214 nucleotides of DNA from Escherichia coli (GTDB lineage Bacteria > Pseudomonadota > Gammaproteobacteria > Enterobacterales > Enterobacteriaceae). The notes beneath the pieces were generated by a model. It searched no databases, was not told where the DNA came from, and saw nothing but the letters and a program-made list of their open reading frames with translations. This document shows, one piece after another, positions 1-214 of this stretch. The DNA is taken from assembly GCF_003334405.1 (NCBI RefSeq), contig NZ_QOWM01000077.1; one strand, written 5' to 3'. Each line of letters opens with the position of its first letter. Position 1 is the stretch's first letter. A program made the position numbers and the translations under genes.

Positions 1-46
1 TCATCCTCATGAGCTGCAGATGCAAAAAAGCCTGCTCGTTGAGCAG
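1..46. repeat. Direct repeat copy 1 (exact 46/46 match to 169-214; period 168 bp); abuts the window start, so true repeat length is at least 46 bp
   Basis: Base-by-base comparison of 1-46 with 169-214 gives zero mismatches. Seen directly in sequence. Confidence 0.95.
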
Positions 47-214
47 GCTTTTCGAATTTGGTCGGTGATAGAGGATTACTCGCCACTTCGTGGCTCGCCC
101 TGCGGGCCGTTGCTGGCGCAACGTTCTCTCGCTTCGCTCGAGTCGAACCTCCCTGCCCCCGGAGGTTCTCATCCTCATGAGCTGCAGATGCAAAAAAGCC
201 TGCTCGTTGAGCAG
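2..214 (+). CDS. Stop-free reading frame spanning the whole window (register of ATG at 20-22 and 188-190); an open-frame observation, not a supported gene call
   Basis: All 71 codons in this register (2-4 through 212-214) are sense codons. Plus-strand stops occur only in the other two frames (TGA at 10, 40, 178, 208; TGA at 66 and TAG at 69). One unit from ATG 20 translates to MQKSLLVEQAFRIWSVIEDYSPLRGSPCGPLLAQRSLASLESNLPAPGGSHPHELQ (56 aa). Against coding: third-position GC is 33/56 (59%), the same as bulk GC; the frame runs through the terminator hairpin; no resemblance to any protein family I recognise. Confidence 0.12.
24..52. terminator. Intrinsic (rho-independent) terminator-like hairpin, bidirectional: A6, 8-bp GC-rich stem, 3-nt loop, T4
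   Basis: aaaaaa(24-29) gcctgctc(30-37) gtt(38-40) gagcaggc(41-48) tttt(49-52). The stem arms are perfect reverse complements, and with the flanking A/T the inverted repeat is 12 bp perfect (26-37 with 41-52). Minus-strand reading gives hairpin then U6 (complement of 24-29), the stronger orientation. Plus-strand reading gives hairpin then UUUUCGAAUUU, a weaker interrupted U-tract. Confidence 0.6.
82..123. other. Cluster of three adjacent short perfect stem-loops (potential structured RNA segment; strand undetermined)
   Basis: gccac-ttc-gtggc (82-94; 5-bp stem, 3-nt loop); gccc-tgc-gggc (97-107; 4-bp stem, 3-nt loop); cgttgc-tggc-gcaacg (108-123; 6-bp stem, 4-nt loop). All arms are perfect reverse complements. 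Function is inferred only. Confidence 0.4.
146..167. promoter_or_regulatory. 7-bp stem-loop pairing CCTCC (anti-SD-like) with GGAGG (Shine-Dalgarno-like), upstream of ATG at 177
   Basis: aacctcc(146-152) ctgccccc(153-160) ggaggtt(161-167), perfect 7-bp stem with 8-nt loop. GGAGG at 161-165 lies 11 nt upstream of ATG 177-179 (the copy of ATG 9-11). The structure is seen directly; a regulatory role is speculative. Confidence 0.3.
169..214. repeat. Direct repeat copy 2 (exact match to 1-46); abuts the window end
   Basis: Identical to 1-46 at offset 168. The window therefore holds 1.27 copies of a 168-bp unit. Confidence 0.95.
192..214. terminator. Second copy of the terminator-like hairpin, truncated by the window end (A6, left arm, loop, 6 nt of right arm)
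   Basis: aaaaaa(192-197) gcctgctc(198-205) gtt(206-208) gagcag(209-214), identical to 24-46. Lies inside the terminal repeat. Confidence 0.5.

Follow-up and report, generated by a model that had tools for sequence, protein, structure and literature searches.

The 214-nucleotide stretch of Escherichia coli DNA analysed here (contig NZ_QOWM01000077.1, referred to in its entirety as the window) lies between eptB and dppA, in the region downstream of the transfer RNA (tRNA) gene proK, and carries a structured RNA element of the RtT family. It is one contiguous match, 100% identical, to the chromosome of E. coli K-12 MG1655, where it occupies positions 3032-3245 of the locus numbered here as L001, in reverse complement. 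Native, contiguous and 100% identical chromosomal copies are found in strains that include MG1655, C, B and ATCC 8739. In a search of 5410 E. coli genomes all of the 8002 matching places were chromosomal and 0 were on plasmids. The overall order of the MG1655 locus is eptB, proK, RtT, REP and dppA. Resolved along the transcribed strand, eptB is followed by a promoter-like site upstream of proK (TTGACG-17-TAAGAT), by proK itself (tRNA-Pro(CGG), L001 2943-3019, + strand of the locus), a terminator hairpin, RtT, an identical second hairpin, a truncated second unit, the REP sequence and finally dppA.

The identity of the element is given by its match to the Rfam RtT model (RF00391), which covers window 192..59 on the minus strand over the full model (1-130/130) with 101.3 bits against a gathering threshold of 45 and E = 6e-22. 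The match lies directly 3' of proK on the same strand, which is the location that defines RtT elements, and RefSeq annotates an 'RtT sRNA' (small RNA) at this position (L001 3054-3187, + strand of the locus). In this sense the element is ordinary and already known, and a literature search for the proK-linked RtT copy found nothing specific to it. No coding sequence is annotated at the window in the E. coli RefSeq records listed. ARAGORN finds no tRNA in the window, where the only tRNA-like parts are T-arm strands and a 3' end. RNA homology at 192..59, combined with the upstream position of proK, makes the minus strand assignable as the functional strand. Our results support, with high confidence, a reading of the window as the non-coding 3' trailer of the proK transcription unit, containing one full RtT-family element with a terminator copy on each side within a tandem 168-bp unit.

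The complete RtT RNA unit, a structured repeat of the proK operon 3' trailer, spans 59..192 on the minus strand according to Rfam RF00391, RefSeq and the predicted fold. Its 3' end (59..76, minus) is a copy of the last 18 nucleotides of tRNA-Pro(CGG), ATCCTCTATCACCGACCA, identical to proK L001 3002-3019 and comprising the end of the T loop, the T-stem 3' strand, the acceptor 3' strand, the discriminator and CCA. Within this copy the segment AUCCUC (71-76, minus) forms the 3' strand of an outer stem and pairs with GAGGAU (171..176, minus; Rfam, fold), a 5' strand that overlaps the conserved GGAUGAGAAC motif. Enclosed by the stem is an arm hairpin, GAACCUCC-GGGGGCAG-GGAGGUUC (145..168, minus; inverted repeat I4, fold), whose 3' strand is the tRNA-Pro T-stem 5' strand plus the start of the T loop (UUCGA) and whose sequence follows the cognate tRNA at other loci. 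The conserved core with its three small hairpins (95..139, minus) was identified by a core-pattern match for which 0 occurrences are expected by chance, and it is placed between GGTTCGA and AATCC, the position of the T loop in a tRNA. A further hairpin, GCCAC-GAA-GUGGC (82..94, minus), carries the clearest covariation of the unit. Overall, the conserved core amounts to about 66 nucleotides, and the sequences on either side of it are copies or complements of the T arm and the 3' end of the adjacent tRNA-Pro. In the minimum-free-energy fold (-50.9 kcal/mol) the outer stem closes a multi-branch loop with five hairpins.

Conservation of this structure was assessed in an alignment (A2) of 72 distinct homologous units, drawn from the matches listed and situated next to five kinds of tRNA gene. 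In this alignment 88.7% of cells are paired, compared with 31-49% when the partners are slid by 1-3 columns, and the covariation score is 0.200 compared with 0.05-0.07 for the same slid controls. Changes on both sides occur at 16 pairs. Helix 6, the hairpin at window 94..82, lies outside the search pattern, shows compensatory change at 5/5 pairs and is paired in 94% of cells, while the outer stem shows compensatory changes at 7/10 pairs across tRNA types. The single-sequence fold agrees with the covariation structure. The unit has the covariation-supported secondary structure characteristic of RtT, with the core helices fixed by the search pattern. The arm segments GAGG, CCUCC, GGAGG and CCUC (window 145-176 and 59-76, minus; A2 columns 35-67 and 143-152) can form two mutually exclusive pairings. 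One is the closed Rfam fold, composed of outer stem and hairpin, and the other is a 5' hairpin plus a tRNA-like T-arm stem that encloses the core. Since each of the four strands tracks the tRNA, covariation lends the two arm pairings equal support. The RtT core is also covered by a weak Rfam match, below threshold, to AaHKsRNA22 (Aggregatibacter sRNA 22; window 65-153 minus, 21 bits, E = 0.049), a family that probably represents a relative of RtT in the Pasteurellaceae under an entry of its own.

The correspondence of the arms with the adjacent tRNA becomes apparent when relatives are collected across genomes. One genome of each species was scanned with the core pattern, which yielded at least 152 further core matches in at least 120 further stretches of DNA (at least 156 matches with the K-12 loci). 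Among the matches listed, the nearest upstream tRNA on the same strand was Tyr in 60, Pro-CGG in 34, Lys in 18, Pro-TGG in 16, Arg-ACG in 6 and Arg-CCG in 2, counts that are not to be read as frequencies. The hosts listed are Enterobacterales, Gilliamella, one Marinobacterium and one Cellvibrionaceae genome, and every core checked in eight loci passed the Rfam RtT threshold, with 74-132 bits. In 103 of 134 RtT copies among these matches the 3' tail is the last 18 nucleotides of the upstream tRNA, whether Tyr, Pro-CGG, Pro-TGG, Lys, Arg-ACG or Arg-CCG, and the 5' arm likewise scores best against the cognate tRNA. In the Arg-ACG-linked units of Yersinia (L031, L032, L049, L072 and L102) the 5' arm matches tRNA-Arg(ACG) over 27 nucleotides from anticodon to T loop, with 26/27 identical positions in the alignment of L072. 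There the unit is in effect a copy of the 3' half of the tRNA whose T loop contains the RtT core. Citrobacter sp. MGH106 (L099 6611-7360, minus) has three intact tRNA-Tyr genes in tandem and, after them, a fourth, full-length copy of tRNA-Tyr that holds the approximately 66-nucleotide RtT core inside its T loop (GGTTCGA|...|ATCC; Rfam RtT, 100.8 bits). Phytobacter massiliensis (L024 1-543, minus) has a degenerate version of the same hybrid. Both hybrids look as though a tRNA T arm had recombined with the T-arm-like part of an RtT unit.

The anatomy of RtT units is therefore that of partial copies of the neighbouring tRNA with a module of about 66 nucleotides in the T loop. As a tentative extension, which we hold to be possible but rather doubtful, recombination at the near-universal GGTTCGAATCC may have spread this module among six or more tRNA operons, with the arms subsequently kept matched to each tRNA by gene conversion. 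The mutual complementarity of the four arm segments could also allow the RNA to alternate between the closed Rfam fold and a T arm like that of a tRNA.

A different origin for the repeated tRNA 3' ends would be as scars of the attL/attR type, left by integrase-mediated insertion into the T loop of proK and the subsequent decay of a mobile island. The T loop is a preferred crossover site of tyrosine integrases, and the repeated tRNA segment indeed begins in the T loop, with the conserved core placed exactly between TTCGA and ATCC. The tRNA-Tyr-like sequences of Citrobacter sp. MGH106 and P. massiliensis, full except for the core that they contain, could be taken the same way. However, no integrase or mobile-element genes lie nearby, the neighbours being eptB and dppA, and the repeats are only 168 bp apart. 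An insertion scar also does not account for the T-arm-complementary sequences within the unit, nor for a core of about 66 nucleotides whose helices are conserved and covary beside six tRNA species among the matches listed. Copy number, moreover, changes in exact unit steps, as expected for homologous recombination between long repeats. We consider the att explanation very unlikely.

The RtT element of the window is bordered on both sides by the same intrinsic terminator hairpin. The copy that is complete in the window, AAAAGCCUGCUC-AAC-GAGCAGGCUUUU followed by more U (24..52, minus), is the second in the genome and corresponds to inverted repeat I2, with arms of 12 nucleotides that are 100% complementary. 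The first copy, right after proK, is represented by its 3' two-thirds and is cut by the window edge (192..214, minus; L001 3032-3054), where it is an exact repeat of 24-46. Each hairpin folds with -20.1 kcal/mol, and a run of T comes after it. The hairpin has the properties of an intrinsic terminator, namely a 13-bp stem that includes 8 G-C-rich pairs, a 3-nucleotide loop and UUUUUU, although a simple consensus scanner flagged no terminator because the U tract was counted into the stem. Beyond the second hairpin the window ends in the start of the truncated second RtT unit, made up of a linker and GAGGAUGA of the 5' arm (1..23, minus). In the genome this second unit continues to GGTTCGACTCGA (L001 3276), five bases into the core, where REP/BIME sequence takes over, all within L001 3265-3370, a region that begins shortly past window position 1 on the transcribed strand. 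On the opposite strand of that sequence lies an Rfam naRNA4 match (CssrE, 69 bits) at L124 1107-1186, equivalent to about L001 3281-3360.

Among the matches listed (L003-L122), a terminator in the spacer between tRNA and RtT is found at Pro-CGG, Pro-TGG, Arg-ACG and some Lys loci. Its position is kept while the stems have diverged, both strands changing together. Tyr-linked loci among these matches have no terminator hairpin between tRNA and RtT. Expression of the proK-type copies may be low as a result of a terminator placed before RtT.

The window came to attention through its stop codons. The initial annotation had described an open plus-strand frame and two open minus-strand frames, together with two TA dinucleotides, and had called the pattern compatible with GC-rich composition and TA avoidance rather than a proof of coding. 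All of its counts are exact. Stops on the plus strand fall in two frames (TGA at 10, 40, 178 and 208; TGA at 66 and TAG at 69), which leaves open the frame starting at base 2 of the window. Minus-strand stops, seen as plus-strand TCA at 1, 7, 169 and 175 and TTA at 76, occupy a single register and leave two minus frames open. CTA is absent from the window and TA occurs only at 69 and 77. The window is a repeat, however, in which bases 169-214 are an exact copy of bases 1-46 at a spacing of 168 = 3 x 56, so that it consists of a 168-nucleotide unit (56 codons) and an exact 46-nucleotide repetition of the unit's start. The repeat duplicates the minus-strand stops at 1 and 7 as those at 169 and 175, which forces the two pairs into one register. 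Independent minus-strand stops number 3 per 168-nucleotide unit, for which the chance of all falling in one register is 1/9. In total the window has 11 stops compared with a dinucleotide expectation of 10.5.

The dinucleotide shuffle that the initial annotation had named as a control was carried out on the 168-nucleotide unit, each of 20,000 shuffled units being re-extended with its own first 46 nucleotides. Three or more open frames occurred in 15.5% of these shuffles and two or more open minus frames in 14.4%, compared with 3.3% in a naive shuffle that treats all 214 nucleotides as independent. There is thus no excess of open frames over composition, and the pattern is not special, which is the outcome that the initial annotation had said would make it purely compositional. 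This rate, combined with the lack of a conserved frame and of any annotated coding sequence, bears out that cautious reading. TA is depleted relative to base composition (2 in the unit, P = 0.011 in a mononucleotide shuffle), a depletion common to the homologous units among the matches listed (mean 2.6 observed, 4.3 expected). The appeal to TA avoidance accordingly stands, while the description as GC-rich was mildly overstated at a G+C of 56.5% for the window and 58% for the unit. The three stop-free frames are without coding meaning. They arise from the purine-rich, TA-poor sequence of a structured RNA (the minus, or sense, strand is 60% purine), from the small number of independent stops and from a unit of exactly 56 codons, a length that allows an open frame to pass into the next copy.

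A small-protein gene nevertheless deserves consideration, either for an arginine-rich, Tpr-like ('protamine-like') peptide starting from the ATG in GGATGAGAA on the minus strand or for a plus-frame protein. The homologous tyrT repeat has an annotated tpr open reading frame (ORF) of 29 amino acids (NC_000913.3), and the same ATG is present in the proK unit within the conserved GGAUGAGAAC motif (170..172, minus), at the position equivalent to the tpr start codon in the tyrT repeats. The K-12 frame that it opens, MRTSGGREVRLERSERTLRQQRPAGR..., has MR and RQRP.GR in common with Tpr and continues from unit to unit since 168 = 56 x 3. In K-12 this ATG (172..170) opens an arginine-rich frame of 114 codons, or of 120 amino acids when read from an upstream TTG, and the K-12 ORFs over the region comprise 120 and 174 amino acids in sense and 110 amino acids in antisense. 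A plus-strand frame from base 59 is, in addition, open in 63 of 72 homologues among the matches listed.

Comparison of the homologues argues against coding. The proK unit differs from the tyrT units by indels of +5, -1 and -1 inside the ORF. Among the Pro-linked homologues listed, the ATG-anchored frame switches among all three phases after the hairpin loop and an in-frame stop is present in 14 of the 23 Pro-CGG members, while several lack the ATG altogether (AGT, AAT or ATT). The anchored translations comprise at least three unrelated peptides, such as MRTSGGREVRLERSERTLRQQRPAGR..., MRTSGGKRFDSSVARERC... and MRTSGGRGSTRAKRENVA..., because the length of the hairpin loop varies by non-multiples of three. 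No reading frame conserved with both start and stop was found among the homologues, and their variation is compensatory in RNA helices rather than synonymous. The longest sense ORF, that of 174 amino acids, crosses the tRNA-Pro gene itself, and open frames at the density seen are expected by chance. Searches with the three K-12 ORFs gave nothing better than E = 0.17 against protein families (NCBIfam; large protein databases were not searched), and the E. coli RefSeq records listed again have no coding sequence here. The resemblance to Tpr (MR..., RQRP.GR) is best read as a side effect of nucleotide- and RNA-level homology in patches that are in frame by chance. The openness of the plus strand can be attributed to its being the pyrimidine-rich, stop-poor antisense of a 60% purine sense strand. 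A coding function of either kind appears highly improbable.

An origin in a synthetic vector, or else in the faulty assembly of a circularised repeat, might be suggested by its CTGCAG, CTCGAG and TCATGA sites (PstI, XhoI and BspHI), by its terminator hairpin, given that the proK terminator is used in suppressor-tRNA expression plasmids, and by its likeness to one unit plus an overlap, but the restriction sites are native to the chromosome, all 214 nucleotides are contiguous and 100% identical in native chromosomes and the purely chromosomal distribution across the 5410 E. coli genomes searched leads us to reject a vector origin and to give the artefact explanation practically no credence.

The window samples a longer repeat. 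In the chromosome a 108-nucleotide perfect direct repeat recurs at a spacing of 168 nucleotides, and the 46-nucleotide repeat of the window is part of it. The tandem 168-bp unit, consisting of terminator, linker and RtT, is present in about 1.6 copies in MG1655. Three aligned strains differ by exact 168-bp steps between identical flanks, with 0 full units in Origami2-DE3 (L123), 1 in MG1655 (L001) and 2 in P50 (L124). The flanks in Origami2-DE3 are 100% identical to those of MG1655 and the whole 168-bp unit is absent. The unit is therefore gained and lost readily. Unequal homologous recombination, or slippage, between the 108-bp perfect repeats would add or remove whole units. Unequal recombination also varies the copy number of tandem repeats in the tyrT-tyrV duplication, and the exact gain or loss of whole 168-bp units between long perfect direct repeats at proK is nothing unusual beside it. 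Raised coverage of tyrT/rttR has been noted in a mobilome preprint, in a passage that attributes it to RNA/DNA heteroduplexes rather than to circles. A 272-nucleotide contig of Moellerella wisconsensis (L016) is essentially one RtT unit, which suggests that RtT repeats break short-read assemblies.

Several of these observations weigh against the reading of the window as the trailer of proK with an RtT element. At least 80% of the window is present in 2712 of the 5410 E. coli genomes, and roughly half of the genomes, including at least one apparently healthy laboratory strain, are without the full unit. Given such strains the proK copy is dispensable, and it may have no function of its own. A strong terminator hairpin separates proK from the RtT copy, and transcription of RtT at this locus is something we infer. 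The single-sequence fold has a z-score of only -1.96. The search pattern fixes many positions of the core, which means that invariance of the small core helices carries no weight, and the counts by tRNA type, as noted above, do not stand for frequencies. Lastly, the plus-strand frame from base 59 remains open in most homologues.

The closest known system is the RtT of the K-12 tyrT locus, which includes rttR, the annotated 29-amino-acid tpr ORF and an RtT copy between tyrT and tyrV. According to Bosl and Kersten (1991), as cited in PMC3318445 and PMC4986893, the tyrT RtT RNA is released from the tRNA-operon transcript and is linked to the amino-acid starvation response. The proK element resembles it in the full model match, in its location 3' of a tRNA gene on the same strand, in ending with the last 18 nucleotides of that tRNA including CCA, in tandem repetition and in sharing the core, the helices, the GGAUGAGAAC motif and the GGATGAGAAC motif. 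All defining traits of RtT that lend themselves to computational testing are found in the proK unit. The two nevertheless differ in several respects. The proK copy is attached to tRNA-Pro(CGG) with its arms re-tuned to the tRNA-Pro T arm. Its unit measures 168 bp rather than about 178 bp, contains an intrinsic terminator hairpin that is absent from the tyrT units and has undergone the +5, -1 and -1 indels described above. Its number is also variable, with about 1.6 copies in MG1655 and 0-2 full units in the three strains aligned. The tpr ORF encoding a 'protamine-like protein' (b1229) goes back to Altman et al. 1981, as referenced in PMC11623569. The proK unit shares with tpr a start codon in the same motif, an arginine-rich translation and short common stretches. 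Unlike tpr, its frame is not colinear owing to non-3n indels, lacks the tpr stop codon and is not conserved.

By analogy with tyrT, where release of the RNA is known, a route to expression of the proK copy can be proposed. Some transcripts from the strong proK promoter would read through the first terminator into RtT. The enzymes of tRNA 3' processing may then trim and release the RtT segment, which would accumulate as a structured RNA. Processing of this kind is proposed because RtT ends exactly like tRNA-Pro. Stable RNAs arise from the 3' external transcribed spacers of tRNA operons, such as 3'ETS-leuZ. Like 3'ETS-leuZ, RtT would be encoded immediately 3' of a tRNA and set free as a by-product when the tRNA precursor is processed, but unlike it RtT is repeated, highly structured and mimics the tRNA 3' end. 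To our knowledge, no base-pairing target or sponge role has been described for RtT.

Our analysis clears away one possible false gene call. It also illustrates how stop counting misleads in a short repeat, where copies lack independence and a frame that is open in one unit of 3n bases continues into the following one. For the family as a whole, the tracking of the adjacent tRNA by the RtT arms across six tRNA species constrains models for the origin of elements that are long known and functionally obscure. In E. coli, the presence/absence and copy-number polymorphism of the proK RtT provides ready, near-isogenic material for asking what RtT does.

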